This document shows, piece after piece, positions 3,296 to 27,736 of a DNA stretch of 40,674 nucleotides. The notes beneath the pieces were generated by a model. That model was not told where the DNA came from. It saw only the letters and a program-made list of their open reading frames with translations, and ran no database searches. Source of the DNA: an uncultured Oscillospiraceae bacterium (GTDB taxonomy: Bacteria; Bacillota; Clostridia; Oscillospirales; Oscillospiraceae). A program made the translations under genes and the position numbers. Location: the NCBI GenBank assembly GCA_964528715.1, contig CAZGTR010000001.1:1-40674 (forward strand). Direction: 5' to 3'. How positions within the stretch are numbered: the first letter of the stretch is position 1; each line of letters begins with the position of its first letter.

Positions 3296-3729
3296 ATACC
3301 ATTGCAGTAAAAAAAGTGAGAGAAAATGCGATCCTGCCTACCTATGGCTCCCGGGAGGCGGCGGGGGCAGATCTGTACGCCTGCCTGGAGGAACCGGTGA
3401 CCATTCAGCCGGGGCAGACGGTGTTTATTCCCACGGGCCTTGCCATGGAGGTGCCCAAGGGTTGCGCCGGTCTTGTGTATGCCCGCAGCAGCATGGGGGC
3501 CAAACGGGGCCTGGCTCCGGCCAATAAGGTGGGCGTTATCGACAGCGACTACCGGGGGGAGATCTCCGTGGTGCTGCATAACCACGGCGGCATTGCCCAG
3601 ACGGTGGAGCCGGGGGAGCGGATCGCCCAGCTGATCATCACCCCGGTGCTGACACCGGCGTATGAGCAGGTGCAGGCGCTGACGGATACCCACCGGGGCA
3701 CCGGCGGCTTTGGCTCCACCGGTAAGTAA
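3292..3729 (+). CDS. dut: dUTP diphosphatase
   Basis: AAGADL, ARSS, GVIDSDYRGE, ERIAQ, RGTGGFGSTG motifs; ATGA overlap with nrdG. Confidence 0.97.
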   Translation: MNTIAVKKVRENAILPTYGSREAAGADLYACLEEPVTIQPGQTVFIPTGLAMEVPKGCAGLVYARSSMGAKRGLAPANKVGVIDSDYRGEISVVLHNHGGIAQTVEPGERIAQLIITPVLTPAYEQVQALTDTHRGTGGFGSTGK

Positions 3730-3757
3730 AAGAGAATATTCCAAGGAGGCTTCGTTT

Positions 3758-10333: not shown

Positions 10334-10414
10334 TACCTTTTTTCATATTCCCGAAAAAAAGAATTTTATGTACAATCGGCGCAAACTATGATAAAATGAG
10401 TACGAGGTGTTGAT

Positions 10415-10822
10415 ATGAAAGAACTGATCAAGAAGCACGCCGATGTGCTGAGCTATTTGATTTTTGGCGGACTGACCACCGCCGTGAATTATCTGATCTA
10501 TTTGCCCTGCTATAATATCTTGCACTGGGATGCCAGCGTCAGCAATATGGCGGCTTGGGTGGTTTCCGTTGCCTTCGCATTTTTGACCAACAAGCCCTTT
10601 GTGTTCAAGAGCCACGATTGGTCTGCAAAAGTGGTCTTGCCAGAGCTTTCCAAGTTTCTGGGCTGCCGGGTGGGTTCCGGGGTGCTGGAGACGGCGATCA
10701 TTTTTATCACCGTGGATCTTGCCCATTGGAATGGCAACTGGATGAAGCTGTTTACTGCGGTGCTAGTTGTTGTTTTGAACTACTTCGGTAGCAAATTGCT
10801 GGTTTTTAAAAAGGAAAAGTAA
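10415..10822 (+). CDS. GtrA family membrane protein (lipid-linked sugar translocase-like)
   Basis: 135 aa with about 4 TM segments; YLIFGGLTTAVN, FAFLTNKPFVF, NYFGSKLLVF. Confidence 0.9.
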   Translation: MKELIKKHADVLSYLIFGGLTTAVNYLIYLPCYNILHWDASVSNMAAWVVSVAFAFLTNKPFVFKSHDWSAKVVLPELSKFLGCRVGSGVLETAIIFITVDLAHWNGNWMKLFTAVLVVVLNYFGSKLLVFKKEK

Positions 10823-10823
10823 G

Positions 10824-10855
10824 AAAAAGTCCGTGGCAAAAGCCACGGACTTTTT
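10824..10855. terminator. Bidirectional intrinsic terminator (end of aro operon and gtrA)
   Basis: AAAAAGTCCGTGGC-AAAA-GCCACGGACTTTTT, a perfect inverted repeat. Confidence 0.9.
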
Positions 10856-11288
10856 ATGCGCCGTATTTCTCTTTTAGGTAGAGGATCGCCTGGCGGTAAC
10901 CGTCGATCCCATGACCTTTGATGGTTTTTTCACAATACATCCCCGGATAGGATATCTGCCGGAAGGGCTCCCGGGCATCCACATCGGAGATATGGACCTC
11001 CACGGCGGGAATGGACACGGCTTTCAGGGCATCCAAAATGGCGACGGAGGTATGGGTATAGGCGGCGGGGTTGATGACGATACCGTCAAATTTCCCATAG
11101 GCCTGCTGGATGGTGTCCACGATGGCCCCTTCATGGTTGGACTGGAAGTGCTGGATCTCGATATCCAGTGCATTGCCGGTCTGCTCCAGCAGGGCCAGCA
11201 GATCTTCGTAAGAGTTTTTGCCGTAGATACCCGGCTCCCGAATGCCCAGCATATTGATGTTGGGGCCGTTGATCACGAGAATGTTCAT
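10854..11288 (-). CDS. aroQ: Type II 3-dehydroquinate dehydratase
   Basis: NGPNINMLGIREPGIYG, QSNHEG, INPAAYTHTS, EVHIS. ATG 11288 overlaps the upstream stop. Confidence 0.97.
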   Translation of the reverse strand: MNILVINGPNINMLGIREPGIYGKNSYEDLLALLEQTGNALDIEIQHFQSNHEGAIVDTIQQAYGKFDGIVINPAAYTHTSVAILDALKAVSIPAVEVHISDVDAREPFRQISYPGMYCEKTIKGHGIDGYRQAILYLKEKYGA

Positions 11289-12511
11289 TTGCGTTCCTCC
11301 CATTGCTTCAATATGGCGGCAACGGTGGTGTCCACGCCGCCGTTGTTGTCCACGTGGACATCCGCAAACCGGTCATACAGGGGCTTTCGAACCCGGTAAA
11401 GCTCCGAAAGAGCCGTGGCCTGGGACAGGGGGCGGCCCTCTGTTGCCAGGGCGTTCAGATCCCGATGGAGACAGAAGATCTGACCGTTCTGGTGCAGCAG
11501 CGGGTAATTTTCTACCCGGGTGACACAGCCACCCCCGGTGGCGATGACCAGGCCGGACTGTTTGCCCAGCTCTGACAGCACGCTGGTCTCCAAGGCTCGG
11601 AATGCAGCTTCTCCCTGTTTTTCGAAAATTTCCGGGATGGAAATGCCGGCCTTTTGGGCGATGGCTTCGTCTGCATCCACAAAATGCTTGCCGGTTTTGT
11701 CTGCCAGCAGGCGACCGACGGTGGATTTGCCGCTGCCGGGCATCCCGATGAGGATGATATTTTCCATCTGGTTGCGCAGAAGGTGGTAGATCTTGGAAAT
11801 GGCATTTTCGTCCAGGGAATGCCCGGAAAACCACTGGGCGCTTTCCCATGCCTGGGCCACCAACATTTCAAGGCCGTTGGCGGTGACAAGGCCCAGCCCT
11901 TCCGCTTCCAGAAGCAGTGCTGTCCGGGCGGGATTGTAGATGATGTCCAGCACGCCCTCCAGCTTGGGAAAGCCGGAAAGAGACAGGGGCGCAAGGCCGG
12001 TATCCGGGTACATCCCCACGGGAGTTGCATTGACGATGAGGGCCGCATCGGCGTGCCGGTGGAGATTTTGATAGTTGTTTTCACCGGAGCGGGAGATGAC
12101 TACTACATGAGCGCCCAGTTCTTCTAACACGGCGACAGCTGTGTTAGAAGCGCCGCCGCTGCCCAAAACCAGCGCCTTTTTCCCGGAAACGGAAAGCCCG
12201 GTGCGGCGCACCATGGTCTCAAAACCGAAATAGTCGGTGTTATGCCCCAGCAAAGAGCCGTCCGGCTGCCGCACGATGGTGTTCACCGCCCCCAGCTTTG
12301 CCGCAATGGGCGTTAGTTCCCGGCAGTAGGGGATGACCGCTTTTTTATAGGGAACTGTGACATTGAGCCCATGAAAGGCATCGCTTTTGAGAAATGTATC
12401 CAGCTCCTCCGGCTCTGTGGGAAACAGATCGTATGAGTAGCTCCCCAGATGGCTGTGGATCTGGGGGGAATAGCTGTGGGTCAGGTGACGGCCCAATAAC
12501 CCGCAGCGCAT
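11285..12511 (-). CDS. aroE: Fused shikimate dehydrogenase / shikimate kinase (AroE-AroK)
   Basis: N-terminal HSYSP..H, NVTVPYK, AVNT, NTD and GSGGA motifs; C-terminal IGMPGSGKST Walker A, FRALET, ATGGG. Confidence 0.93.
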   Translation of the reverse strand: MRCGLLGRHLTHSYSPQIHSHLGSYSYDLFPTEPEELDTFLKSDAFHGLNVTVPYKKAVIPYCRELTPIAAKLGAVNTIVRQPDGSLLGHNTDYFGFETMVRRTGLSVSGKKALVLGSGGASNTAVAVLEELGAHVVVISRSGENNYQNLHRHADAALIVNATPVGMYPDTGLAPLSLSGFPKLEGVLDIIYNPARTALLLEAEGLGLVTANGLEMLVAQAWESAQWFSGHSLDENAISKIYHLLRNQMENIILIGMPGSGKSTVGRLLADKTGKHFVDADEAIAQKAGISIPEIFEKQGEAAFRALETSVLSELGKQSGLVIATGGGCVTRVENYPLLHQNGQIFCLHRDLNALATEGRPLSQATALSELYRVRKPLYDRFADVHVDNNGGVDTTVAAILKQWEERK

Positions 12512-13653
12512 TACACGACCTCGCAGTAGCTGCCCAGATACTTAAATTCCTCGCACAATTCATCCAGCTCGCACATCAGCTGCACGAATTCCTCGGAATA
12601 GATGGAGGTGTCCAGATCAAAGTAGAACATGAACTCAAAATCACGGTCCGGAATGGGGCGGGATTCCAGCTTGGTCACGTTAATGCCCAGCACATAGAGC
12701 CGGGCCAGTACACGGTACAGGGCACCGGGACGGTGATTCAGCACCATCATGATACTGGTCTTATCGGAGCCGGGGTAGATCTCCAGATTTTTGCTGATAC
12801 AAATGAACCGGGTGCGGTTATTGTCCTTGTCCTGGATGGAGGTGGCCAGATTTACAAGGCCGTACAGCTCCATGCAGTTGCGGCTGCTGATGGCAGCAAC
12901 GTCGGTACGTCCGGAACGGGCGACCATTTCAGCTGCAACAGCAGTGTTTTCAACCGGGATGATCTTTACACCGGTAAGCGTGCTCAGAAATGCGCTGCAC
13001 TGGCTGATGGCCTGCTCGTGGGAGTAGATCTCCTTGATATTTGCCAGGGTAGCGCCGGGAGCAGCCAGCAGGTTGTGATCGATCTTCAGACGGAAGGTGC
13101 GCACGATGGAGAAGTTATGCTTGATCATCAAATCATAAACCTTTTTAACGGAACCGGCGGTGGAGTTCTCAATGGGGAGAATACCATACTGGCACAGCCC
13201 CTGCTCAATGGCAGTGAAGATTCCCTCAAAATTCTTGAAATACATGATCATGGGGCTTTGGAACATTTTCTCACAGGCGATTTGGGCATAAGAGCCCTCT
13301 ACGCCCTGGCAGGCCACCATGGGTGCCTTGGGGAACAGCTTGGGTGTATTCTCAATGGAGTCTGTGATCTGGCGATACAAGGCAGATACGGTGTTGTTGC
13401 GCTTGCTTTGGTAGCTACGGCTCAGCTCAAAGAGCATGGAGTAGAGTACCCGGGTGTAATTGTCCATCTCAGGCCCGGCCTGCTTGGCGACAGCCTGGAG
13501 CTTTTCCCGCTCCCGGGCCGGGACGAATACCGGCATATCGTGGGCTTTTTTGTAGTCCGCAATGCCGGCAGAGACGGCCATTCGTTTGGCAAACAGCTCC
13601 ACCAGTTGGTCGTCGATTTGGTCGATCTGCTCTCGAAGTTCTTGAATATCCAT
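12511..13653 (-). CDS. pheA: Chorismate mutase / prephenate dehydratase with ACT domain
   Basis: LREQIDQID chorismate mutase domain, PIENSTAG, NRTRF, NVTKLESRP. Confidence 0.96.
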   Translation of the reverse strand: MDIQELREQIDQIDDQLVELFAKRMAVSAGIADYKKAHDMPVFVPAREREKLQAVAKQAGPEMDNYTRVLYSMLFELSRSYQSKRNNTVSALYRQITDSIENTPKLFPKAPMVACQGVEGSYAQIACEKMFQSPMIMYFKNFEGIFTAIEQGLCQYGILPIENSTAGSVKKVYDLMIKHNFSIVRTFRLKIDHNLLAAPGATLANIKEIYSHEQAISQCSAFLSTLTGVKIIPVENTAVAAEMVARSGRTDVAAISSRNCMELYGLVNLATSIQDKDNNRTRFICISKNLEIYPGSDKTSIMMVLNHRPGALYRVLARLYVLGINVTKLESRPIPDRDFEFMFYFDLDTSIYSEEFVQLMCELDELCEEFKYLGSYCEVV

Positions 13654-13656
13654 GGT

Positions 13657-14745
13657 TTATTTCCTCCTGTTTGTCTGGGTGTTGCCCAGGATCATGTCAA
13701 AAATCGCAATGGCTGCGGCTGCCTCTATCACGGGCACCGCCCTGGGAACGATACAAGGATCATGCCGCCCCTGCACGGTCAAAACCGTGTTCTCCATCCG
13801 TACCAGAGAAATGCTCTGTTGCTGGCGAGCAATGGAGGGGGTAGCTTTGAGTGTCACGTCGAACAGCAGGGGCATTGCATTGGTAATTCCACCCAAAATG
13901 CCACCGCAGTGATTGGTGACGGTCTTCACTTCATTGTTTTCAATTTCGAAGGGGTCGTTGCTTTCGCTGCCCAGATGAGCGGCAAAAGTTTCGCTCCAAC
14001 CAAATCCAACATTTTTCACGGCGGGGATGCCGTAGACGATTTGGGCGATGCGGCTTTCCACGCCACCGAACATGGGCTCTCCCAGCCCGGCAGGAAGTCC
14101 GGTGACAGCACATTCAATGCGCCCCCCCACGCTGTCACCCAGTGCTTTGACCCGTGCGATCTCGTCGAGAAAAACTTCAGCGCTTTCGGCTGTCAGTGTG
14201 GGGAAGATGCGCCCGACTCGGTCCAGCTGGGGTTCCGACGGGTCGAACCGGGGAGCGCAGTGTGCACCGATCTGGATGATGTGCGCACCAATATGAATGC
14301 CCATCTCTGCCAGCCATTGCTTACATAGTCCACCGGCAATGCACAGAGGGGCAGTTAGCCGACCGGAAAAGTGACCACCACCGGCGCTGTCTTGAAAACC
14401 GCCGTATTTGATCTGAGCGGTATAATCTGCATGGCCCGGACGGGGGCAGTCTTTCAGATCGTTATAATCTGAGGAACGGGTGTTGGTGTTGCGAATGATG
14501 GCGGCGATGGGGGCACCACAGGTAAAGCCGTCCTGCACGCCGGAGAGAAATTCCGGAATGTCTGCTTCTTTCCGGGGTGTGGTGTGATCACCATGTCCCG
14601 GTGCCCGGCGTGAAAGAAAGGACTGCAATTCTTCCGTGTCCACGGATAGCCCCGCTGGAATGCCGTCCAGCGTCATGCCGATGGCGGCACCGTGAGATTG
14701 TCCGAAAATGGAAAGCTTCAAATTTTCACCGTAGGTACTGCTCAT
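13657..14745 (-). CDS. aroC: Chorismate synthase
   Basis: FGQSHG, RPGHAD, GGGHFSGRLT, TNHCGGILGG, GRHDPC. Confidence 0.97.
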   Translation of the reverse strand: MSSTYGENLKLSIFGQSHGAAIGMTLDGIPAGLSVDTEELQSFLSRRAPGHGDHTTPRKEADIPEFLSGVQDGFTCGAPIAAIIRNTNTRSSDYNDLKDCPRPGHADYTAQIKYGGFQDSAGGGHFSGRLTAPLCIAGGLCKQWLAEMGIHIGAHIIQIGAHCAPRFDPSEPQLDRVGRIFPTLTAESAEVFLDEIARVKALGDSVGGRIECAVTGLPAGLGEPMFGGVESRIAQIVYGIPAVKNVGFGWSETFAAHLGSESNDPFEIENNEVKTVTNHCGGILGGITNAMPLLFDVTLKATPSIARQQQSISLVRMENTVLTVQGRHDPCIVPRAVPVIEAAAAIAIFDMILGNTQTNRRK

Positions 14746-15916
14746 AATATCCTCCTAACCGGCGGTATTCCTCCCAAAATTGGGGATACGATTTATTTAC
14801 AGCCTGGGCACCCAAAATGGTCACGGGCTCCCGGGAAATCGTGGCGGCGATGGCGGCAGCCATGGCAATGCGGTGATCGTTGCACGTATCCACCGTGCCG
14901 CCCAGAAGCCCGGTGCCAAGAACAGTCAAGGTGTTTTCGTCTGCATACGCCTTGCCGCCTAAGTGGGTGATCATGGCAATGACGGAAGTCACCCGGTCGG
15001 ACTCTTTCAGCCGCAGGCGGCGGATATCCGTGAACACGGCACCGTGACAGGCAGCCGCCGTAACTGCCAGAATGGGCACCAGATCCGGAATGTCGGCAGC
15101 AGATATTTCGGCATTTCCGGCAGATAGAGCCGGCAGCAGTGTCGCTGCGGTACGATCACCTTGGGGAGAATCCGCTGCAAGTCCCCGGATATCCAGGTCG
15201 CTTCCCAGTGTATTTGCCGCCAGGAAGAAGGCACCGTTGCTCCAGTCGCCCTCCACGGTCAGCACCCCGGGGGAGCGGAAGTGCTGACTGCCAAGGGGCT
15301 GTGTCGAGACCCCAAAGCGGCTGAGCGCTTCTTCCGTCATGCGCACATAGGGCGCCGATTCCAGTTTGCCGGTGACGGTGAGCTGGCTTTCCTTTTCCAA
15401 AAGGGAGAGGGCCAGCAGAAGACCGGTGATAAATTGGCTGGATACGCCGCCGTCGATTCGGTATTGACCGGGGGAAAGCTTTCCCTGACAGCGGACAGTG
15501 TCCGTTGTGGGGCGGGTGAGGGTGCAGCCCATGCGCTCCATTTCCTCCCACAATGGAGAAAGGGGACGCTTGGGAAGCCGGCCTTTCATATAAAAGGTCG
15601 TATCCACGCCCAAAGCACCGACTACCGGAAGCAAAAAACGCAATGTTGAACCACTTTCACCGCAGGGAAGGGTCGCTTTCTCCGGTAAAACAGTCACAGG
15701 TGTGACCCAATAGCCATCTTCCGTGGGGACGATCTGTGCGCCCAGTGCATTTAGGCAGGCGGCAGTGGCCTCAATATCTTGATTGGAAGCCGGGCAGATC
15801 AAATGGGTGGAGGAGTCAGCAAAAGCGGCACAGATCAAGTAGCGGTGCGCCTGGGATTTGGAGGGGATGATATTCAGCTTACCCCGGAGAAGTCGGGGCT
15901 GGATGGTAATGTCCAT
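14726..15916 (-). CDS. aroA: EPSP synthase
   Basis: PSKSQAHR, CGESGSTLRF, SSQFITGLL, LRLKESDR, NDHRIAM, KSYPQF. Start ATG 15916. Confidence 0.96.
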   Translation of the reverse strand: MDITIQPRLLRGKLNIIPSKSQAHRYLICAAFADSSTHLICPASNQDIEATAACLNALGAQIVPTEDGYWVTPVTVLPEKATLPCGESGSTLRFLLPVVGALGVDTTFYMKGRLPKRPLSPLWEEMERMGCTLTRPTTDTVRCQGKLSPGQYRIDGGVSSQFITGLLLALSLLEKESQLTVTGKLESAPYVRMTEEALSRFGVSTQPLGSQHFRSPGVLTVEGDWSNGAFFLAANTLGSDLDIRGLAADSPQGDRTAATLLPALSAGNAEISAADIPDLVPILAVTAAACHGAVFTDIRRLRLKESDRVTSVIAMITHLGGKAYADENTLTVLGTGLLGGTVDTCNDHRIAMAAAIAATISREPVTILGAQAVNKSYPQFWEEYRRLGGYYEQYLR

Positions 15917-15917
15917 A

Positions 15918-16970
15918 TCAAAGACCTGCCTCAATAAATGCTTTAACTTCATCCACCGGTGTTGGGCGGATGGAACAGACACCGATCTGTTCCGGAACGA
16001 TGAGGTTTACCGTGCCGCCGGTGCGTTTTTTGTCGGAAAGGGTTGCTTCGTAAAGGACCTGTGTGTCGTATTCGGTGCGGATCGGAAGGCAAAAATGTTC
16101 CAAAATACCAACGATCCGGTGCGCTGTCTCTGGGGCACAAATGCCGAGTTTTGCACTGGAGCGGCTGACAATGGCCATACCGATGGCCACGGCGCTGCCG
16201 TGGGAAACGGCAAAGTCACTGGCCTTTTCCACACCATGACCGATGGTGTGGCCCAAATTTAGCTTCATCCGAAGTCCGGTGTCAAATTCGTCCTGCGCAA
16301 CCACGTCCCGCTTCAGCTCCACGCACCGGGCAATGACCTCCTCCCGGGAAAAGTCTGGACCGGTCTGCTCCAGGGAGGTAAACAGGGCTTCGTCGTACAG
16401 TACGCCGTATTTGAGGACCTCGGCGCAGCCGTCCCGGAAGATCTCCGAGGGCAGGGTATTCAGGGTATCCGTGTCACACAGCACCAAGCTGGGCTGATAG
16501 AATGCTCCTGCCAGGTTTTTTCCGGCGGGCAGATCGATGGCGGTCTTGCCGCCTACGGAGGAGTCCACCGCTGCCAGCAGCGTGGTGGGCACCTGGATGT
16601 ACGCAATGCCCCGCAGATAGGTAGCGGCGGCAAAGCCAGTGAGGTCTCCCACAACGCCGCCGCCCAGAGCAATGAGGCAGTCGGAGCGGGTCACATGGTG
16701 CGCTGCAAGATCATTGAGTAGGGAGAGGTAGGTGTTTCCATTTTTGCTCTCCTCTCCGGCGGGGATGACGTGTGTCAGGACGGAAAAGCCTGCTTCATGT
16801 AAAGAATGCGTTACTTTTTCACCGTACAGAGGGTACACACGGCTATCGCTGACCACCACGGCGGTGGTGCCTTTGGACACGGCGGAGACTTCCTGCCCAA
16901 TTTGGAAAAGCAGGCCATTGCCAATCTTTACATCATAGCTTTTGGATGCGTTGACATGGATGGTTTTCAT
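15918..16970 (-). CDS. aroB: 3-dehydroquinate synthase
   Basis: GEESK, ALGGGVVGDLTGFAAATYLRG, PTTLLAAVDSSVGGKT, LNLGHTIGH. Confidence 0.97.
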   Translation of the reverse strand: MKTIHVNASKSYDVKIGNGLLFQIGQEVSAVSKGTTAVVVSDSRVYPLYGEKVTHSLHEAGFSVLTHVIPAGEESKNGNTYLSLLNDLAAHHVTRSDCLIALGGGVVGDLTGFAAATYLRGIAYIQVPTTLLAAVDSSVGGKTAIDLPAGKNLAGAFYQPSLVLCDTDTLNTLPSEIFRDGCAEVLKYGVLYDEALFTSLEQTGPDFSREEVIARCVELKRDVVAQDEFDTGLRMKLNLGHTIGHGVEKASDFAVSHGSAVAIGMAIVSRSSAKLGICAPETAHRIVGILEHFCLPIRTEYDTQVLYEATLSDKKRTGGTVNLIVPEQIGVCSIRPTPVDEVKAFIEAGL

Positions 16971-17797
16971 CCGTCTACCTCCTCTTTGCGCTGGCGACCT
17001 TCGTTCAAAAGGGTAGTCAATAGCGCAATATCGCCCGTTTCCAGGGCGTTTTTATATTGCTGTAAGCTCTGAATATAGGTGTCCAGCTCAAACAGCATAT
17101 TTTCCCGGTTCTCCATGCACAGCTCTGCCCACATCTGGGGGTGCAGCCAAGCCACCCGTGTCAGATCCTTATAGCTCCCGGCGGAGAAGCCTCTATGATC
17201 AAGGGCTGTGGGGGACTTGATGTAAGCATTGCTCAAAACATGGGGCATTTGGGAAGTAAATGCGATACGCTTATCATGCTCCTGGGCCGTGCAGACGGAG
17301 AAGAAGCCAAAATGGCAAGGTTCCAGAGCGTTTTTTACTCGCTCCAGCAGCTGCATTTCGTCGAATTTTGCAGGAATGAGCACCATAGGCGCACCCTGGA
17401 ACAGATTAGAGCGACTGTATTTAAAGCCGGAAAAATGAGAGCCTGCCATGGGGTGTCCGCCAACAAAGGTAAAACCATATTTTTCTGCCAACGGGAAACA
17501 GCGGCGGCAGATTTCTTCTTTTACACCGCAAAGATCCATCACAAGGGTGTCAGGCTTGACCAAATGTGCATTTTCTTCCAGCCATGCGGCGCTACCTGCC
17601 GGATAGATGGCAAGAAGCAGCAGATCGCAATTGGCAATGGAGCATTCATCCAGGACCCCCTGTACAGCACCGGAGAGCTTTGCAAAGGAGAAAACGCTTA
17701 CGTCTTTTTCGGCGGCCAGTACGGTATGACCAGCTTTGGCATAGGCCCGGGCCATGGAGCCGCCGATAAGCCCAAGACCCAGAATACCGACGGTCAT
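16967..17797 (-). CDS. tyrA: Prephenate dehydrogenase
   Basis: GLGLIGGS, GGHPMAG, HDKRIAFTSQMPH, GSYKDLTRVA. Confidence 0.95.
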   Translation of the reverse strand: MTVGILGLGLIGGSMARAYAKAGHTVLAAEKDVSVFSFAKLSGAVQGVLDECSIANCDLLLLAIYPAGSAAWLEENAHLVKPDTLVMDLCGVKEEICRRCFPLAEKYGFTFVGGHPMAGSHFSGFKYSRSNLFQGAPMVLIPAKFDEMQLLERVKNALEPCHFGFFSVCTAQEHDKRIAFTSQMPHVLSNAYIKSPTALDHRGFSAGSYKDLTRVAWLHPQMWAELCMENRENMLFELDTYIQSLQQYKNALETGDIALLTTLLNEGRQRKEEVDG

Positions 17798-18795
17798 CCT
17801 ACGACCTCACGGATCTCGTTGACCTTGGCGTTGAGCTGTGCGAATTGAGCCGGAGTGATGGATTGTGCACCGTCGCACAATGCGGCAGAGGGGTTGTTGT
17901 GGACTTCCACCATAATGCCGTCCGCACCACAGGCAGCAGCGGCATAGGCCATGGAGGGAACCAGGCGGGCCTTGCCGGTGGCGTGGCTGGGATCGACCAC
18001 AACAGGCAGGTGAGTCAGCTCATGAAGCACCGGCACGGCAGAAAGATCCAGAGTATTGCGGGTGTACGTCTCGAAAGTGCGAACGCCCCGCTCGCAGAGG
18101 ATGACGTTTTCGTTGCCTTCGCTCATGATGTACTCGGCGCTCATGAGAAGTTCCTGCAAGGTGTTTGCAAGGCCACGCTTTAATAAGATGGGCTTGTCCG
18201 TCTTGCCCAGTTCCTTCAGCAGGTCGAAGTTTTGCATATTCCGGGCGCCTACCTGGATCAAGTCCACGTCTGCAAACAGATCAAGGGTGGAAATGTTCAT
18301 GATCTCCGTGACGATAGGCAGGCCGGTGGCTTCCTTTGCTTTCAGCAATAGCTTTAATCCTTCGCCCTTCATGCCCTGGAAGGCGTATGGTGAGGTGCGA
18401 GGCTTGAAGGCACCGCCCCGGAGCATGGTGGCACCGGCGGCTTTGACCGCCTGGGCGACCTCAATGATCTGCGCTTCGGATTCCACGCTGCACGGTCCGG
18501 CGATCATGCCAAAATAGCCGCCGCCGATCCGGGCAGGACCGACTTGGATGATGGAGTCCTTGGGATGGAACTTGCGGTTGGCCTGCTTGAAAGGCTCGGA
18601 GACCCGCTTGACACTTTCCACGATCTCAAGAGAGCTCAATAGTTCCATGTCCACCCGGCTGGTATCACCGATAAGACCGAGAACGGTCACCTCCTGGCCT
18701 GCGGAGATGTGTACATCCAGGTTCATGTGATTCAGCCATTCCACCAAATGCTGTGTTTGCTGCTGGGTGGTGCCCTGTTTCAAAATTGCGATCAT
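17794..18795 (-). CDS. aroF: DAHP synthase (type I-beta) with N-terminal regulatory domain
   Basis: IAGPCSVE, RGGAFKPRTSPY, QVGARNMQNF, LKRG, CERG, DPSH. ATG 18795; TTG 18801 is an alternative. Confidence 0.95.
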   Translation of the reverse strand: MIAILKQGTTQQQTQHLVEWLNHMNLDVHISAGQEVTVLGLIGDTSRVDMELLSSLEIVESVKRVSEPFKQANRKFHPKDSIIQVGPARIGGGYFGMIAGPCSVESEAQIIEVAQAVKAAGATMLRGGAFKPRTSPYAFQGMKGEGLKLLLKAKEATGLPIVTEIMNISTLDLFADVDLIQVGARNMQNFDLLKELGKTDKPILLKRGLANTLQELLMSAEYIMSEGNENVILCERGVRTFETYTRNTLDLSAVPVLHELTHLPVVVDPSHATGKARLVPSMAYAAAACGADGIMVEVHNNPSAALCDGAQSITPAQFAQLNAKVNEIREVVG

Positions 18796-18812: not shown

Positions 18813-18851
18813 AAAAAAATAGCGCCGCACGAATGCGAGTCGTGCGGCGCT
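18813..18851 (-). terminator. Attenuator terminator of the aro operon leader
   Basis: RNA AGCGCCGCACGA-CUCGCAU-UCGUGCGGCGCU-A-U7, directly upstream of the aroF RBS. Confidence 0.92.
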
Positions 18852-18903
18852 TTCAAATACAGCTTTGCAAATCCTACTGGAATGTATGCAGCACAAATCG
18901 CTA

Positions 18904-18969
18904 TTACTTTTTCAACATAAAAAAGTAATAGTTAAAAAAGAAAAATGCCACGGAAGCGGGGATCATCAT
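18904..18969 (-). CDS. Phe/Tyr-rich leader peptide MMIPASVAFFFFNYYFFMLKK (21 aa)
   Basis: Manual translation. AGGAGG (18978-18983) lies 8 nt before the ATG; 6 Phe and 2 Tyr fall within 9 codons; tandem stops TAA TAG; sits between promoter and terminator. Confidence 0.9.
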   Translation of the reverse strand: MMIPASVAFFFFNYYFFMLKK

Positions 18970-19001
18970 GATATGAGCCTCCTAAACCAGTAATTACGGT
19001 T

Positions 19002-19030
19002 ATTATAGCACTGTAAAATGGGGAATGCAA
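19002..19030 (-). promoter_or_regulatory. SigA promoter of the aro operon leader
   Basis: TTGCAT-17 bp-TATAAT with extended TG. Confidence 0.85.
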
Positions 19031-19087: not shown

Positions 19088-22000
19088 TTATTCCGTAATG
19101 GTAAATTCCCGGGTGGTAACGTGGGCAAAGTTGAAGTAGATCTCAACGGTGTAGTTACCAGCTTCCTTGGGCATGAAGGGGATCGTCAGCTTGCCACGGC
19201 TGCGGTACCACATATTGGTCCAGGTGCGGCTTTCGTTTGCGACGCTGACCAGATTTCCCTGTTCATCACGAATGACATAGAGGGTAACGATCTCATCATC
19301 GGAGGTGGTGTAATTATTCAGCAATCGCATGGTAAAGGAGGCGCTGACACCAGAGGCAAAGTTGGTGGTGAAATCGCTGTCCTTCACATCCCAACGGTCC
19401 CAATTTTCCTTGGAGGGGGTGATACACATTTTCAGAGAAATGGTCTCATTGTTCACGCCATAGCCGGAAAAGTCCTCAGCATTGGGGACGGCATAGCTGC
19501 ACTCTCCGCCGAAGGTGGTAGCGCCATTGGCACATTGAATGGAAATGGTGTAGTTGCTACCGGGAACGAGGGGGAAGATGGTGGCTTCCGCAGTGGCGCA
19601 CTGAATCACCTGGCTGTCCATGCCGTCGAGGCTATACAGTACCAGCCAGCCACCTTCGGGTGCAGTACAATCGTAAGTCCAGCTGAGTTTTAGCGTTCCG
19701 GCAACAGTTGTATCCATTTGAATATCCTGCAAGGTGACGGAACCGGCAGTGAGGAAAGTGCGGGCATTGACAGTCATGCCATCGGCAGTGACTTCAATGG
19801 TGTAGCTTGCGGCATTGTCCAGCCCGGTGAGGATCACAGAAGTGGTGTCGGTGGTTACGGTCTGGTCGTAGCTGTCGTTATAGCAACGCACGGACCATTT
19901 TTGAACGGTCTCGCCTTCGGGGGCAGACCATGTAATGTGCAGACCGCCATCCTTGAAGCCAAGGATCTGCAGATTTTCAGCGACGATGACATTGGTGGGT
20001 ACGAAGGTCAAGCTTGTTTCACCGGATAGATACAGGGAAGATACAGGTTCCAGGGTGAAGGTATACTCCTTGCCCACTGTCAAGCCAGAGATATTTGCAA
20101 TGTGTCCGGCGAAAGTGGTGGCCATTTCTGGCACTTCCGGATCACCGGGAACGCCATAGTGGACGACCCACTGCTGGACATCCGGGCCCTGGACGGTGAA
20201 GCTCAAGATCACGGAACCATCGTCGTTGCCAATGGAGGCATGGAAATCGGAGATGGTGGTCAGCTGAGAAGTGGTATATGTGGCGGTCGTGGTGCCGCTC
20301 AACCGATGGAAACCGGAGATACGCACCTGGATTTTATAATTCATGCCCGCACTCAAGCCGTCAAAAGTGGCGATACCATCCACGACCTCAGCACGCTGGG
20401 TGGTACCGTAGGTGTCCGTACACAGGACGGTGAGCAGAGTGTGATCTGTATCGGTTTCCACACGGATGATCAGATGATCCTCGCTGCCACTGACGGTCAA
20501 GTCGTCAATGGTCTGCAGGTAGTATCTGTTGTAGAACAGATAACCGCCCAACAGCAGGGCCAGAAGCAAAACGCTGCCGATCAAGGAAGCCAACAGGCCC
20601 TTGTGCTGCTTTTTAGCGGGGATGGCGGCGGGATCTTCCGGCGTGGCCTCGACTTGCACAGGATCTTCCGGTTCATTTTCCGTTTCAGTTGCCTCCTGGG
20701 GCTGCTGAGTATCGTCTGCTTCGGATCCCTCCGGTACCTCATCGGTTGCCTGCACTTCTTCGACGGGAGTTTCCTCTGGGACAGGTAGTGTCACCTCAAT
20801 AGGCTCGGGAGCGACGACAGGGCTGGGGGTCTCGTGGGCGATGAGGTCATCGGCCTGGGCCAGCATTTGCTCTGTTTCGCTCTGGGTGGAAGCTTCTTCC
20901 GACTCTGGTGCGTATTCTGCCTCGTTTTCGCTATCCGTTTCGGGTTCGGTATCCTCATCAGACACTTCGTCAGGTGTTTGATCCGCTTCTTCGTCGGATC
21001 CTGTTTCTTCCGTTGTTTCTACGGCCTCGGCAGCTTCCGGTTCAGAGGGGGAGAGCTCTGGTGTTTCCTCCGAGGTGCTTTCCTCGTTCACTTCGGCTTC
21101 GGGGACTTCTTCAGACGTTTCATCGTGGGAGTCCTCATGCTCGGGAGCTTGGACACTGTCCAGTGCCTCGTCCACTTGTGCGATAACATCCGCAGTGTCC
21201 AGCGGATCGGCGGTCTCATCCGGCTCTGCTTCCACTGGCTCCTCCGGTTCCTCGGGAGCGGGTGGCGGTACGATGGGCGTGTCATTGACGCTGTTGCGCT
21301 GGAGATAGTTGATCAGCGCCTGGCCCATTTGCATGGGATCCTGCCAGCGGACATCGGGGTTCTGGTCGCAGGCTTTCAAAATGATGGTTGCCAGCTCGTG
21401 GTCTGCGTATTTCGGTGCATGGAGCACATCACCGGGCTCCGGCAAAAGACCATCATTGTAGGCCATGTACAGGATCATACCCACAGCATAGGTGTCCATA
21501 GTAGTGTTCAGCGACGAGTAAGCGTCTGATATCTCAGGGGGTGTAAAGGCACTGTGATATTTCTCTGGCAGTGAGGCATAGGGCAGGGAAGCCAGACTGA
21601 TAAAGCCAAGATCACCAATACGGTATTCACCGTTATTGCAGATATACACATTGTTGGGTTGCAGGTCGGCGTAAAGATAGCCGAACCGGCGGCACACGGA
21701 CAGGGCTGCACAAAGGTCCAGACCCAAATTCACCGCAGCCAGATGGGTCATGTCGTTGCGCTCCAGCTGTGCGGCCAGTGTGGGACGGTATCCGGATAGC
21801 AGGTATACATCGTAACCGGCTTCCGGGTCCATGGGCACCAGTTGCCATTTTTCGTAGGGTACAAAGCCCTCAAAGCGGGAGAGCTTTTGCAGTAGCTCTG
21901 CTTCCTGGACTACATCATCGGCCAATTCCTTAAAGTAAGCAATGGCGCTTTCCCGGTCAGAGAAAGCACCAGCTAACATCAATGCAGCCAGCTTTTTCTG

Positions 22001-22150
22001 TTTGGCGGGGATGGAGATCACCTTTACGATATATTTTTTATCTGTTTCCAGCTCCATAGCGGGGCAGCAGCGTACACCGTCGTGCTCGCTGATGGGGTCG
22101 CCCATGACGAAGCCGTCAAGCAGGGGAGAGATCAATGCAGGTTCCGACAA
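19088..22150 (-). CDS. Membrane protein: degenerate Hanks-type Ser/Thr kinase domain, long acidic linker, TM helix, extracellular FN3-like repeats
   Basis: YIVKVI, YADLQPNN, IGDLG, TPPE, DTYAVG kinase-like motifs; E/P/T-rich linker; TM GLLASLIGSVLLLALLLGGYLFY; GLxxGxxY and W-containing FN3-like strands. Confidence 0.8.
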   Translation of the reverse strand: MSEPALISPLLDGFVMGDPISEHDGVRCCPAMELETDKKYIVKVISIPAKQKKLAALMLAGAFSDRESAIAYFKELADDVVQEAELLQKLSRFEGFVPYEKWQLVPMDPEAGYDVYLLSGYRPTLAAQLERNDMTHLAAVNLGLDLCAALSVCRRFGYLYADLQPNNVYICNNGEYRIGDLGFISLASLPYASLPEKYHSAFTPPEISDAYSSLNTTMDTYAVGMILYMAYNDGLLPEPGDVLHAPKYADHELATIILKACDQNPDVRWQDPMQMGQALINYLQRNSVNDTPIVPPPAPEEPEEPVEAEPDETADPLDTADVIAQVDEALDSVQAPEHEDSHDETSEEVPEAEVNEESTSEETPELSPSEPEAAEAVETTEETGSDEEADQTPDEVSDEDTEPETDSENEAEYAPESEEASTQSETEQMLAQADDLIAHETPSPVVAPEPIEVTLPVPEETPVEEVQATDEVPEGSEADDTQQPQEATETENEPEDPVQVEATPEDPAAIPAKKQHKGLLASLIGSVLLLALLLGGYLFYNRYYLQTIDDLTVSGSEDHLIIRVETDTDHTLLTVLCTDTYGTTQRAEVVDGIATFDGLSAGMNYKIQVRISGFHRLSGTTTATYTTSQLTTISDFHASIGNDDGSVILSFTVQGPDVQQWVVHYGVPGDPEVPEMATTFAGHIANISGLTVGKEYTFTLEPVSSLYLSGETSLTFVPTNVIVAENLQILGFKDGGLHITWSAPEGETVQKWSVRCYNDSYDQTVTTDTTSVILTGLDNAASYTIEVTADGMTVNARTFLTAGSVTLQDIQMDTTVAGTLKLSWTYDCTAPEGGWLVLYSLDGMDSQVIQCATAEATIFPLVPGSNYTISIQCANGATTFGGECSYAVPNAEDFSGYGVNNETISLKMCITPSKENWDRWDVKDSDFTTNFASGVSASFTMRLLNNYTTSDDEIVTLYVIRDEQGNLVSVANESRTWTNMWYRSRGKLTIPFMPKEAGNYTVEIYFNFAHVTTREFTITE

Positions 22151-22357: not shown

Positions 22358-22915
22358 ATGGAGGATGAACAGATCATCGCTCTGTTTCAGCAACGCTCGG
22401 AGGAGGCCATCAGCGTATTGTCCGGGAAGTATGGTGGACTTTGCATGAATGCAGCGTATTGGGTACTCAGCGACAGACTTGATGCGCAGGAGTGCGTCAA
22501 CGACGCATATCTGAAGGTATGGGAGTCTATCCCACCTCAATGCCCCCGGTCATTGCCGGCGTATTTGCTGAAGATCGTGCGAAACTTAGCGATCAATCTT
22601 CAAAACGGAAAAAATTCCCAGAAACGCAGAGGAAATTATGAGCTTTGCCTGGAAGAATTATCTGACGTTATCTCATCGCCAGAGCGGGTCGAAACACACC
22701 TGGAGACAGCGGAATTGACAATCTTGCTGAATCGATTTCTGGACGAGCTGGACATGGAAAACAGAAGACTGTTCATGGGGCGATATTGGCACATGAAGTC
22801 TTATGAAGAACTATCTGCGGAAACGGGGCTTTCACAAGGGACGATCCGTACCCGTCTTTCCCGTATCCGCAGCCGACTGAAAAAGGAACTATCCAGGGAG
22901 GAAATATTTGTATGA
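22358..22915 (+). CDS. ECF RNA polymerase sigma factor
   Basis: 185 aa; region 2 DAQECVNDAYLKVW..YLLKIVRN; region 4 HTH SYEELSAETGLSQGTIRTRLSRIR. Confidence 0.95.
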   Translation: MEDEQIIALFQQRSEEAISVLSGKYGGLCMNAAYWVLSDRLDAQECVNDAYLKVWESIPPQCPRSLPAYLLKIVRNLAINLQNGKNSQKRRGNYELCLEELSDVISSPERVETHLETAELTILLNRFLDELDMENRRLFMGRYWHMKSYEELSAETGLSQGTIRTRLSRIRSRLKKELSREEIFV

Positions 22916-23592
22916 CAGAACAGCAGATCATGGTTGCGCTAACAGATGTTAAGCAGGAGCATATCCTTGCGGGGCTTTACACGCAAAAGAGAAAATGGAA
23001 AGCAGGATGGATCCGCAATGCAGCCGTTGCGGCGGTGTTGCTTTTATTGATCAGCGTAGCGGCCATTTGGCAGGGAGTGAATCATAAACCAACAGACAAA
23101 GCAGCTCACTTCTTTGCCATCACCGCACAAGCAGCAGATGGAAGCAAAACAAATTATGAGTTGAATAAAAGCTATTTCAATTCCGGAACATTTTTTGAAA
23201 CCAATATATTTGGTGGGGATATGCCACTGTTTGAATTTGCATTGGATACCACAAACTGGACGGATGACCCACTTACCATGCGGCAGTATTATTCAAATTT
23301 CGATGTTACTGTTTCCTATGATGGACAAACAGAAGATGACGCTGATCAGCATATTGCTATTTTCCATTTGATGGACGCAGAGATTTTGACAGGCAGCGCA
23401 ACTACCGGTTACGGTATCACAGGCTGGTTTGAAGAACCGACGGATCTTGAGATCTGCGTCACGGAAAAGCAGACGGGAGCGCTGGTGGAAAAGACCGTGC
23501 TGCACATTCGCTATTTGCCTGAAAAAAGCGGCTATGAGCTGACGGTGACGGGATGTGAGACCATAAAAGCATATCAGGACCAAAATACATAA
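22912..23592 (+). CDS. Putative anti-sigma factor (short N-terminal helix, one TM, extracellular domain of unknown fold)
   Basis: ATGA overlap with the ECF gene; MTEQQIMVALTDVKQEHIL, basic patch KRKWK, TM AAVAAVLLLLISVAAIW. Confidence 0.7.
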   Translation: MTEQQIMVALTDVKQEHILAGLYTQKRKWKAGWIRNAAVAAVLLLLISVAAIWQGVNHKPTDKAAHFFAITAQAADGSKTNYELNKSYFNSGTFFETNIFGGDMPLFEFALDTTNWTDDPLTMRQYYSNFDVTVSYDGQTEDDADQHIAIFHLMDAEILTGSATTGYGITGWFEEPTDLEICVTEKQTGALVEKTVLHIRYLPEKSGYELTVTGCETIKAYQDQNT

Positions 23593-23803: not shown

Positions 23804-23832
23804 TTGCAATCAGAAAGCGGCTGTGTTATAAT
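23804..23832 (+). promoter_or_regulatory. SigA promoter
   Basis: TTGCAA-17 bp-TATAAT with extended TG. Confidence 0.8.
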
Positions 23833-23875
23833 GACAAAAAATGAGGTGCGATTCCGTGCCGGACAGGAGGTTTCT

Positions 23876-25159
23876 ATGAGCAAAATTATTTGTGATGTTT
23901 GCGGTACCGCATATCCGGAAACTGCCAACCAGTGCCCCATTTGCGGCTGCGCAAAAGCGCCTGCCGCACAGGCAACCTGTGATGATACACAGCATGAGGG
24001 CTATACATACGTGAAAGGTGGCCGCTTTTCCAAGAGTAACGTAAAACGCAACAACCGTGCAAAGGCCCAGGAACAGCGGGTAGCTGCTCCCGCTCCCAAG
24101 CAGGAGAATACCACTGCTTCCAGTTATGCTGCCCCGGAACGCCGGGAAGATCGGCGTAGACCGGAAAAGGAAGAACCGGAGGGCGTGAACAAGGGACTTG
24201 TGGCAGTGGTGATCATTTTGCTGCTGGCGATCATTATGGTGGTCGTGTACATTGGAAGAAGTGTGTTCCTTGGCGGTAATGATACCACGACCCCCAGTGA
24301 TACCTATCAGCAGACCGAAGGAATGCAGACCGGTAGCACCGAATCTTCCGTTCCCTGCACAGAGCTGAAGCTGGGAAGTGCCATGGTGGAGCTGAAGAGC
24401 GAAACGGAGAAGTATCTGCTGGAAGTACGGCGGATCCCGGAAAATACCACAGACACACTTATTTTTACTTCGGACAATTCCTCCGTTGCAACGGTGGACC
24501 AGAACGGCTTGATCCTGCCCATGGGCAACGGCGAGACTGTGATCACCGTCACCTGCGGTAATGTGTCTGCACAGTGTCTGGTCAGCTGCACCTTTGGTGA
24601 GCCGACTCCCACTGAACCTGAGACCGAGCCGCCTGTGGATATTCCTGCTGGCTTCGTATTGACTCTGAACCGGAAGGACTTCACGCTGGGCAAAGAAGGG
24701 GAGACCTGGACGCTGTATAAGGAGACCGACGGCGTGAAGGCATCTGATATCACCTGGACCACCTCTGATCCTGCGGTGGCGACGGTGGAAAACGGCGTGG
24801 TCAAGGGTGTCAATAAGGGTAATGCCACCATCACGGCGACCTTGGGCGAGCAGAGCGTGACCTGCACGGTGCGTTGCAGCTTCAATGCTTCTGAGCCGAC
24901 CGAAGCTGCGGATTACTACATCAGCTACAAGGACGTGACCTTGAAGTCCGGCGAATCCTTCAACTTGACCCTCAAGACCAAGGAAGGCGCCAATGTCCAG
25001 GGCGTGGAATGGGTGATCAGCGACGAGGGCTATGTGACCATCAGCAAAAACACGGTGAAAGCTAATGCCATCACCGAAAAGAAGGTCATCACCATCTCTG
25101 CCACTTATGAAGGCGTGACCTACACTTGTATCGTTCGGTTGGTTCCGGATGAAGCCTAA
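23876..25159 (+). CDS. Single-pass membrane protein with N-terminal zinc ribbon and extracellular Ig-like (Big_2) repeats
   Basis: CDVC..CPIC at the N-terminus, TM LVAVVIILLLAIIMVVVYI, Big_2-like repeats (FTSDNSSVATVD..G, WTTSDPAVATVENG). ATG 23876 follows AGGAGG. Confidence 0.85.
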   Translation: MSKIICDVCGTAYPETANQCPICGCAKAPAAQATCDDTQHEGYTYVKGGRFSKSNVKRNNRAKAQEQRVAAPAPKQENTTASSYAAPERREDRRRPEKEEPEGVNKGLVAVVIILLLAIIMVVVYIGRSVFLGGNDTTTPSDTYQQTEGMQTGSTESSVPCTELKLGSAMVELKSETEKYLLEVRRIPENTTDTLIFTSDNSSVATVDQNGLILPMGNGETVITVTCGNVSAQCLVSCTFGEPTPTEPETEPPVDIPAGFVLTLNRKDFTLGKEGETWTLYKETDGVKASDITWTTSDPAVATVENGVVKGVNKGNATITATLGEQSVTCTVRCSFNASEPTEAADYYISYKDVTLKSGESFNLTLKTKEGANVQGVEWVISDEGYVTISKNTVKANAITEKKVITISATYEGVTYTCIVRLVPDEA

Positions 25160-25166
25160 ATAATTT

Positions 25167-25196
25167 GCGGCAGCACCCAATTGGGTGCTGCCGTTT
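25167..25196. terminator. Hairpin between convergent genes
   Basis: CGGCAGCACCCAATTGGGTGCTGCCG, a perfect palindrome. Confidence 0.75.
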
Positions 25197-25402: not shown

Positions 25403-25471
25403 AATGCTACCTCCATTTTTCATTTGTTGCTGCTTATAGATTTTCCAGTGTGATGAAAAATATTCATACCC

Positions 25472-25500
25472 TTGCAAAAAGACTTTTCATGGGCTATAAT
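25472..25500 (+). promoter_or_regulatory. SigA promoter of ispE
   Basis: TTGCAA-17 bp-TATAAT. Confidence 0.75.
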
Positions 25501-25533
25501 AACGGAAAAGAACGAATTTGGAGGAATACCAAG

Positions 25534-26391
25534 ATGACGACCCTTTATGAAGGCGCATTCGCCAAAGTGAATTTGACACTGGATGTCCTGGGCAAGCGGG
25601 AGGACGGCTATCATGATCTGAAAAGCGTGATGCAGACCATTTCCCTCCGGGATGATATCGAGATCGATGTGGGAACCGGTAAGCCCTGGAAGCTGCTGTG
25701 TGACAAGGAGGGCATTCCTTGCGACGAGCGGAATTTGGCCTGGAAGGCTGCCAAAGTGTACCTTGATACCGTGAAGAAGGACCCGGATGGTCTGGAGATC
25801 CGCATCACCAAGCGCATTCCTTCCCAGGCGGGCCTGGGTGGCGGAAGCGCCGACGCTGCGGCGGTGCTCCGGGCGCTGAACCGCCACTATGGTGATCCGC
25901 TGTCCATTGCAGCACTGGCGGAGGTGGGCAGTCTTGTTGGTAGCGATGTGCCTTTCTGCGTCATTGGCGGCACCGCCGTGGTAGAGGGCCGGGGCGAGCG
26001 GATCCGGAAGCTGCCGGATATGCCGGACTGCATTTTCGTGGTGTGCAAGCCGGAGTTTTCCGCCTCCACGCCGGAGCTGTACGCCAAGCTGGATGAGCGC
26101 TCCATTGCGCTGCGCCCGGATCATGGTGCCATGGAAAGCGCTCTGCTGGCGGGAGATCTGGAAAAGGTCTGCCAGAATTTCTACAATGTGTTCGATCCCG
26201 TGGTCACGGAAGAACATCTGGAGATGAACTATATCAAGTCCATCTTCAATTCCTACGGCTCTCTGGGCCAGCAGATGACCGGTTCCGGCTCTGCGGTGTT
26301 CGCCGTGGTGACGGAATTCGAGTACGCCGCCGTGATCTGCAATATGCTGAAGGAAAACTATCCCCAGGTATTTATCGGAAAGCCGGTATAA
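25534..26391 (+). CDS. ispE: 4-diphosphocytidyl-2-C-methyl-D-erythritol kinase
   Basis: AKVNLTLDV..REDGYHDL, KRIPSQAGLGGGSADAA, GSDVPF, MTGSGSAVF. Confidence 0.97.
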   Translation: MTTLYEGAFAKVNLTLDVLGKREDGYHDLKSVMQTISLRDDIEIDVGTGKPWKLLCDKEGIPCDERNLAWKAAKVYLDTVKKDPDGLEIRITKRIPSQAGLGGGSADAAAVLRALNRHYGDPLSIAALAEVGSLVGSDVPFCVIGGTAVVEGRGERIRKLPDMPDCIFVVCKPEFSASTPELYAKLDERSIALRPDHGAMESALLAGDLEKVCQNFYNVFDPVVTEEHLEMNYIKSIFNSYGSLGQQMTGSGSAVFAVVTEFEYAAVICNMLKENYPQVFIGKPV

Positions 26392-26415
26392 TTCTGTCAA
26401 ATGCCGTCCATACTG
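26386..26415 (+). promoter_or_regulatory. Putative forespore (SigF/SigG-type) promoter of spoIIR
   Basis: GTATA-18 bp-CATACTG upstream of spoIIR. Confidence 0.55.
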
Positions 26416-27175: not shown

Positions 27176-27736
27176 ATGGACGATCGGCAGATACTGAAGC
27201 TGTTCTTCGCCAGAGCGGAAGGCGCCATTGAGGCTCTGGCGGAGAAGTTCGGCAACACATTGGAGCGCATCGCTATGAACATTCTGGAAAACCGGGAAGA
27301 TGCCCAGGAGAGTACCAACGATACATATCTGGCGATTTGGAACGCCATCCCGCCCAGAGAGCCGGAGCCCCTGGCACCCTATGTGTACCGCACAGGACGA
27401 AATATGGCCTTAAAGCACCTGACCCATGATAGGGCACAAAAACGGCGCAGTTGCTATGATGTGTCACTGGACGAACTTGCCGGGTGCCTGCCCGGTGAGG
27501 ATCTGGAGCAGATGCTGGATGCCCGTGCAGTTGGTCGGGCGATGGATGCGTTTCTGGAGACCCAGAGCCGGGAGAACCGCTATATATTTCTGCGGCGATA
27601 TTGGTACGGTGACAGCATCCGGGATATTGCGCAGGTGTTGAAAATGCGGGAAAATGTCGTGTCCGTCCGGTTGAACCGCCTCCGGGGAAAACTGAAAGAT
27701 CATTTGATCAGGGAGGGATTTTACTATGGATCGTGA
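27176..27736 (+). CDS. ECF RNA polymerase sigma factor (paralogue of 22358..22915)
   Basis: DAQESTNDTYLAIWNAIPP..YVYRTGRN; region 4 SIRDIAQVLKMRENVVSVRLNRLR. Confidence 0.95.
   Translation: MDDRQILKLFFARAEGAIEALAEKFGNTLERIAMNILENREDAQESTNDTYLAIWNAIPPREPEPLAPYVYRTGRNMALKHLTHDRAQKRRSCYDVSLDELAGCLPGEDLEQMLDARAVGRAMDAFLETQSRENRYIFLRRYWYGDSIRDIAQVLKMRENVVSVRLNRLRGKLKDHLIREGFYYGS

Follow-up and report, generated by a model that had tools for sequence, protein, structure and literature searches.

The window (the whole stretch of 40,674 nucleotides that was analysed) contains on its minus strand an aromatic amino acid operon starting with aroF at position 18795 (Table 1). As claimed in the initial annotation, its genes cover the full shikimate pathway (all seven steps) together with tyrA and pheA: matches to NCBIfam were above the curated cut-off for aroF, aroB, aroC, and aroQ, and strong yet below it for tyrA, aroA, pheA, and aroE/K. 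The pheA product is a chorismate mutase-prephenate dehydratase (NCBIfam). Since the nearest named aroF genes were mostly those of Faecousia and Oscillospiraceae MAGs (76-86% identity), the host probably belongs to Faecousia (Oscillospiraceae). The claim that a leader without Trp precedes an operon without trp genes also held: the peptide contains Phe and Tyr, and trpA was found neither in the genome itself (63% complete) nor in any of the 12 same-genus genomes searched.

Upstream of the aro promoter, and insulated from it by a terminator (19083-19054) that begins 4 nt past the stop codon, lies a gene (19088-22150, minus strand) whose 1020-aa product has a kinase-like N-terminus and also contains an acidic linker and domains of the fibronectin type III family. 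Elsewhere in the window, there were genes for a dihydroorotase (338-1552), a serpin-family protein (27726-29141, plus strand; PF00079, 219 bits), and an NlpC/P60 cell-wall peptidase (38367-39317, minus strand), the top NCBIfam match of which, EntFM/CwpFM, was far under the cut-off. For ORFs 1622-2989, 3211-4743, 10343-10726, 22912-23592, 23810-25180, and 25420-26400, neither NCBIfam nor Pfam gave a match at the thresholds applied.

The promoter, AGGAGG, 21-codon ORF, protector hairpin, antiterminator arm, and terminator with its U7 tract described in the initial annotation were all present on the minus strand in front of aroF. The control codons of the leader ORF are F9-F12, Y14-Y15, and F16-F17, and the protector contains TAT-TAC-TTT-TTT (Tyr-Tyr-Phe-Phe) and the TAA-TAG stops. 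The promoter escaped a consensus scanner owing to its -35 box, which matches TTGACA at only 3/6 positions; a TTG-n17-TG-n-TATAAT-like pair was seen in most same-genus leaders (by eye, uncounted).

Table 1. Features of the aro operon and its leader, in the coordinates of the window.
Feature	Position	Strand	Details
SigA-type promoter (inferred)	19002..19030	-	TTGCAT 19030-19025, 17 nt, extended -10 TG-n-TATAAT 19007-19002
Shine-Dalgarno AGGAGG	18978..18983	-	sequence
Leader ORF, 21 codons, MMIPASVAFFFFNYYFFMLKK	18904..18969	-	6 Phe, 2 Tyr
5' extension of segment 1, weak (Val-Ala codons)	18945..18951	-	pairs with 18894-18888, three G-U pairs
Protector (1:2) hairpin, perfect 12 bp	18901..18931	-	18931-18920 with 18912-18901
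Antiterminator 5' arm (segment 2)	18888..18901	-	pairs at 12/14 with 18848-18835; candidate pause 3' end 18890
Segment 3, the 3' partner in the antiterminator (5' arm plus loop of the terminator)	18835..18848	-	pairing with segment 2
Intrinsic terminator	18813..18851	-	12-bp stem 18851-18840/18832-18821, -23.2 kcal/mol, U7 18819-18813
Controlled operon	10854..18795	-	aroF, tyrA, aroB, aroA, aroC, pheA, aroE-aroK fusion, aroQ; NCBIfam
Terminator closing the aro operon	10824..10855	-	abuts the aroQ stop codon

The fold of the leader was more stable than that of 200/200 shuffled sequences (z -4.8). The claim of mutually exclusive structures applied to the antiterminator and terminator, which compete for a common segment (18848-18835), and not to the protector and antiterminator, which overlap by one base (18901) and, in nascent RNA of this copy without a ribosome, formed together with pair probabilities of 0.96 and 0.89, respectively. 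Thus, only the antiterminator and terminator are strictly exclusive, and the predicted switch is between a ribosome at the stop codon and a stalled one. The leader peptide had no match in Pfam. In Rfam, no family matched the window at the gathering threshold, including Phe_leader, Trp_leader, and T-box, and the 14 matches obtained after relaxation to E 10 were weak and unrelated, with no leader or T-box family among them.

The aroF upstream region was read in 29 same-genus relatives (L002-L029 and L031; one genome with a split aroF was left out), and the leader was present at 27 of these loci. The two exceptions (L029 and L031), and the Faecousia-labelled L071, had neither a leader nor tyrA beside aroF. 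In L029 the promoter was retained along with a portion of segment 2, and the terminator was weakened; in L031 the promoter was located directly 5' of aroF, and in L071 aroF immediately followed the terminator of the upstream gene.

We aligned 48 distinct leader-bearing sequences (50 loci minus 2 duplicates; leaderless loci were excluded), and selected the first ATG after the Shine-Dalgarno sequence without regard to codons. The expected run of Phe and Tyr codons was conserved: this ATG was in frame with TAT-TAC-TTT in 48/48 leaders, at a distance of 29, 32, 35, 38, or 41 nt, all differences being multiples of 3. The leader stop was located 6 nt upstream of the antiterminator core in 43/48. Upstream of the protector stem, Phe and Tyr codons replaced each other and varied synonymously; for example, codon -4, outside the stem, was Phe or Tyr in 40/48 (TAC, 12; TAT, 12; TTT, 9; TTC, 7). 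Out of 192, the four codons outside the stem gave 86 Tyr when read in frame, and 0 and 4 when read out of frame, a comparison favored by the preselection of leaders for aromatic content. Outside the genus, the peptide pattern was kept among leader sequences that were mutually dissimilar (by eye).

Covariation differed between the stems that had been expected to covary. The terminator contained 62 compensatory cells, a number reached by 0/500 shuffles. The protector was paired in 98.8% of cells with a near-invariant sequence and one compensatory change, and the antiterminator core in 93.8% with pair-neutral changes; neither did better than shuffles (84/500 and 191/500, respectively). The extension of the antiterminator into the terminator loop co-varied across the aligned leaders, and the 5' arms paired more strongly with their own partners than with those of other leaders (-15.85 versus -13.68 kcal/mol; 0/10,000 permutations, kinship uncorrected). 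The 5' extension was paired in 83% of cells in the majority register, with zero compensatory changes, and in 62.5% when scored in the register of the window, a misfit for most rows; most relatives have a stronger extension made of Ala-Ala-Gln codons. In two sister leaders of the Faecousia clade without pheA (L028 and L068), a change in the antiterminator core halved the pairing energy (-7.8 and -8.0), and these leaders may be decaying.

We compared the codon mix of the leaders with operon content in 114 non-redundant leaders (truncated contigs, operons with neither tyrA nor pheA, and T-box loci were dropped). The median Phe share of Phe and Tyr codons was 0.29 in front of tyrA-only operons (13 leaders), 0.56 in front of operons with both genes (85), and 0.80 in front of pheA-only operons (16), with a p value between tyrA-only and pheA-only of 2e-5 that is too favorable owing to kinship. 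The tree-independent comparisons were not significant, with few pairs available: independent pairs on the aroF tree gave 5.1 with and 0.1 against the pattern in one comparison (7 pairs; median p 0.06), and 4.0 with and 0.0 against in a second (5 pairs; p 0.125). A prediction of Phe share was fixed before the analysis of a held-out class-level set (60 matches selected by score and for paralog pairs). The same order, albeit weaker, was obtained: 0.39 for tyrA-only (6 leaders/10 loci), 0.50 for both (22/25), and 0.63 for pheA-only (4/10), with a one-sided p value of 0.019 between tyrA-only and pheA-only. Tyr exceeded Phe in 4/6 tyrA-only leaders, the other two lacking Tyr-richness, and Phe exceeded Tyr in 4/4 pheA-only leaders, of which only one reached the preset Phe share of 0.7.

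In four genomes with two aroF copies, a Tyr-rich leader preceded tyrA and a Phe-rich leader preceded pheA (F and Y with the number of codons): G214 (L215, F2Y6; L206, F5Y1), G159 (L221, F1Y6; L214, F4Y1), G174 (L226, F0Y7; L201, F7Y0), and G059 (L041, F1Y5; L042, F7Y3), of which the first three represent one family. G198 was a fifth fitting pair by eye (L220, F1Y8; L174, F6Y2, the latter missed by the leader rule described below), and G098 (L223 and L213) ran against the pattern. Other exceptions were L157 (pheA-only, F4Y6), L196, L222, L189, L111, L197, and L278. Trp codons in the leaders leaned to genomes with trpA (11/15 versus 23/69 in 84 genomes; p 0.008, kinship uncorrected), and the sister leaders L034 and L156 differed at a shared position, which is Trp in L034 (trpA present) and Cys in L156 (trpA absent). 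Phe/Tyr runs with one or two Trp codons occurred in L206, L214, L201, L208, L210, L212, L177, L179, and L183, and it is possible that such leaders sense three amino acids.

The way in which the codon mix tracks operon content is an argument for sensing of Tyr in addition to Phe. It is unlikely that this attenuator responds to Phe only, with its Tyr codons kept for the sake of the protector stem, in spite of the 6 Phe versus 2 Tyr codons in this copy, the location of both Tyr codons in the near-invariant stem, and the response of Corynebacterium glutamicum aroR to Phe alone (PMC11802643, as far as the accessible part of that source goes). Relatives commonly have Tyr codons outside the stem, Tyr-rich leaders preceded 15/19 tyrA-only operons versus 1/20 pheA-only operons, and the modelled antiterminator was identical for stalls at Y14/Y15 and at Phe codons.

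The occurrence of such leaders was estimated with a fixed rule blind to Phe versus Tyr (a Shine-Dalgarno sequence, a start, a length of 8-60 codons, 5 or more aromatic residues in 12, and a distance of at most 450 nt from aroF). The rule was positive at 166/247 aroF loci with enough upstream DNA, a combination of the genus, order, and named sets that includes duplicates and is rich in Faecousia, and 164/166 had a terminator; the order set comprised 120 of about 150 listed matches. In the class-level set, a leader was present at 37/60 aroF loci. As a background, 24/584 operon-leading ORF starts of the genome itself were positive, of which 9 also had a terminator. The top score (8) was that of the aroF leader, the sole one of at least 7. 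Named carriers included Lachnospiraceae, Christensenellaceae, Acutalibacteraceae, Oscillibacter, and one Lentisphaerae MAG. The clostridial aromatic leader family is widespread and apparently uncatalogued.

Several other arrangements were found at aroF. The Lentisphaerae MAG (L092) has a clostridial-like aroF with a Phe/Tyr leader outside Firmicutes, and a contig labelled Alloprevotella (L075) has a clostridial-like aroF with a short leader remnant; either may be due to transfer or a binning error. T-box-like motifs, called with a short pattern and not with Rfam, were found upstream of aroF at 17/247 and 3/60 loci (L043, L044, L230-L232, L235-L237, L239-L242, L244-L248, L282, L286, and L293), and leaders were absent or doubtful at the 17. 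In these operons, pheA was present (where the contig permits) and tyrA absent, constituting a natural swap of sensors for one pathway. In L046, as in several loci of f28 (L202, L203, L209, L211, and L217-L219), a second aroF copy had no leader and immediately followed another gene; in L046 this gene resembles trpF, judging from a motif, and trpA is nearby. Such copies may lie inside trp operons.

Folding was modelled with a ribosome that keeps 15 nt from the P site single-stranded (the footprint assumed). Wherever among the Phe and Tyr codons the ribosome stalled, Y14 and Y15 included, the antiterminator formed in nascent RNA. The cost of freeing segment 3 in this copy was 8.1-8.4 kcal/mol with a stalled ribosome, 4.0 with a ribosome at the stop, and 5.6 without a ribosome, and the medians for the 48 leaders were 10.1-11.4, 5.4, and 3.3 kcal/mol, respectively. 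Between the stalled and stop states, the modelled shift is approximately 4 kcal/mol in this copy and 6 for the median, and the cost fell by at least 3 kcal/mol at the stop in 39/48 leaders. With a ribosome at the stop, the partner bases of the terminator loop, at which the terminator can nucleate, were covered (nucleation cost, 2.6 versus 7.6-8.0); the antiterminator of this copy still formed at 0.9. Without a ribosome, the protector and antiterminator co-folded in 19/48 leaders and were made exclusive by the 5' extension in 29/48: the Ala-Ala-Gln extension of most relatives mimics segment 3 and holds segment 2 (median 0.11; >0.5 in 19/48). In the full-length leader, the probability of the terminator was 1.0 in every ribosome state. 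Among the Escherichia coli controls of this full-length test, trpL kept its terminator with a stalled ribosome and pheL switched. Full-length equilibrium folding was rejected as a test of switching, being non-discriminating: the terminator always won, as for trpL. Since the terminator wins at equilibrium, the switch would be kinetic.

We consider it highly probable, on the basis of sequence comparisons and folding models, that the leader is a classical ribosome-mediated transcription attenuator over the aro-tyrA-pheA operon. RNA polymerase would enter the operon only upon a shortage of charged tRNA-Phe or tRNA-Tyr. By stalling at any of the Phe or Tyr codons, the ribosome would leave segment 2 free to pair with the emerging segment 3, thereby pre-empting the terminator, and both amino acids may be sensed in the manner of an OR gate. 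On reaching the stop, 6 nt upstream of the conserved arm, a ribosome would mask that half of segment 2 whose partner is the terminator loop; the terminator could then nucleate at the loop and displace the remaining six pairs. Without a ribosome, the protector and 5' extension would hold segment 2, well in most relatives and weakly here. The conservation of the reading frame, the variation of the codons, the covariation of the terminator, and the match between composition and operon all supported the claim, made in the initial annotation, of a two-amino-acid attenuator over the whole pathway.

It is highly improbable that the leader instead reads general ribosome speed or is a fixed damper, with slippery U-rich codons, a strong terminator, and a constant leak: the dominance of the terminator at equilibrium in all states, the incomplete block of the antiterminator by the protector, and the fact that frameshifting in the Phe runs of pheL has been studied are consistent with this, but it leaves unexplained the agreement of the Phe:Tyr mix with the presence of tyrA and pheA, as well as the lean of Trp codons toward trpA genomes. 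A protein- or tRNA-bound switch (TRAP-like or T-box-like) that reads the U-rich hairpin, with the ORF as a by-product, is hardly credible, since, although the near-invariant protector with its single compensatory change resembles a binding site and T-boxes occur elsewhere in the genome (7 matches, 2 above the cut-off), no T-box or other Rfam family matched at the gathering level, the Shine-Dalgarno sequence, ATG, and frame were preserved through 3n indels, and the peptide pattern outlasts leader sequence similarity beyond the genus (by eye).

For the ribosome-mediated attenuator, a pause of the polymerase 11 nt past the protector, which would give the ribosome time to load, is plausible, and the protector is a candidate pause hairpin. 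The pause consensus consists of G at -10, Y at -1, and G at +1. For a 3' end 11 nt past the protector, 48/48 leaders had T at -1 together with G at +1, and 36/48 had G at -10; pause hairpins at -13 to -11 and enrichment at positions -10, -1, and +1 are described in the accessible part of PMC11077087. The invariant T is a mismatch within the antiterminator, which fits a second role in pausing and could equally be tuning. Outside the aligned set, a TGCTG-like arm was found in only 46/93 leaders (presence only, regardless of spacing). The polymerase of Bacillus subtilis outruns the ribosome (PMC7858274 and PMC9226507, in part), and runaway transcription and NusG pausing are treated in the available parts of PMC7858274, PMC9226507, and PMC13323073. 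Inspected by eye, the candidate pause showed no clear TTNTTT motif for NusG. As an indirect measure of runaway transcription, terminators starting at most 12 nt from a stop were counted: 51/83 in the genome itself (666 ORF ends) versus 11/26 in E. coli K-12 (400 kb, 175 ends). This proxy was rejected because the host and E. coli K-12 were not separated (p 0.11), and we therefore make no claim about transcription-translation coupling in the host.

The mechanism is classical, and there are precedents for aroF leaders. As in the pheL-pheA and trpL-trp systems of E. coli, a Shine-Dalgarno sequence and short ORF, a run of cognate codons, alternative helices, and a terminator precede the first gene. 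The present leader differs in having control codons for two amino acids, in preceding the whole common pathway with both branches, in its clostridial host, in having the stop codon inside the protector stem and approximately 40 nt between the antiterminator arms, and in having no Rfam match to the families of pheL and trpL even at E 10.

One precedent is aroR of C. glutamicum, a Phe-Tyr-Phe leader before the aroF operon that is induced by Phe, not Tyr, limitation (Neshat et al. 2014, summarised in the accessible part of PMC11802643). By description in that part, both have Phe and Tyr leader codons before a DAHP-synthase operon, and stalling raises transcription of the latter in the case of aroR, as is predicted here; aroR belongs to Actinomycetota and has three control codons, versus eight here. 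The uORFC-13-1 motif is a predicted aroF uORF attenuator from Acholeplasma and unassigned environmental DNA (24 sequences; Brewer et al. 2021, PMC8632094, in part). It resembles the present leader, again by description in the available text, in its location upstream of aroF and in its promoter boxes, RBS, start, Phe-coding U-run, second stem, terminator, and proposed attenuation, and differs in that only Phe is mentioned; the available supplement text of PMC8632094 has no entry for the motif. In the accessible part of PMC2659441, a Shewanella aroF element is listed as a possible tyr-tRNA attenuator, and attenuators before tyrA supraoperons, without leader peptides, are predicted in that of PMC1173090; aroF is unmentioned in the available part of PMC11109978. 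No description of a clostridial aroF leader family was found in a literature search that left most subscription work, including older comparative attenuator studies, outside.

Like the T-box of Firmicutes aro operons, the leader would relieve termination in the same operon upon accumulation of uncharged tRNA; in the T-box, by contrast, the tRNA binds RNA directly without translation, and none was found in the leader by Rfam. A Leu leader peptide is reportedly present in Staphylococcus aureus. Leader peptides for His (hisZ/hisS) are also found in Firmicutes (PMC2965389, in part). The His and Leu leader peptides are likewise amino acid-specific and replace T-boxes, and differ from the present leader in their amino acids and operons.

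What we mainly add is the agreement between the codon mix of the leaders and the content of their operons. A broader reading, to which we give somewhat less than an even chance, would be a class-wide clostridial family of hairpin pause-driven aromatic attenuators with codons retuned upon the gain or loss of a branch: Tyr-rich with tyrA, Phe-rich with pheA, both with the full operon, and Trp added in Trp-making genomes. It would include Tyr-specific attenuators, of which no experimentally tested example was found in the literature, and would place a hairpin pause at work in a phylum whose polymerase is believed to run ahead of the ribosome.

In teaching, Firmicutes are commonly presented as relying on T-boxes. 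If the attenuator reading is true, ribosome-read attenuation would act at most of the aroF operons sampled from gut Clostridia and be common in these bacteria, which bears on the control of their aromatic amino acid supply. The Tyr-rich, Phe-rich, and mixed leaders represent small natural test pieces, some of which occur as paralogs within a single genome. The branch served by an orphan aroF could also be easier to assign with the aid of its leader.
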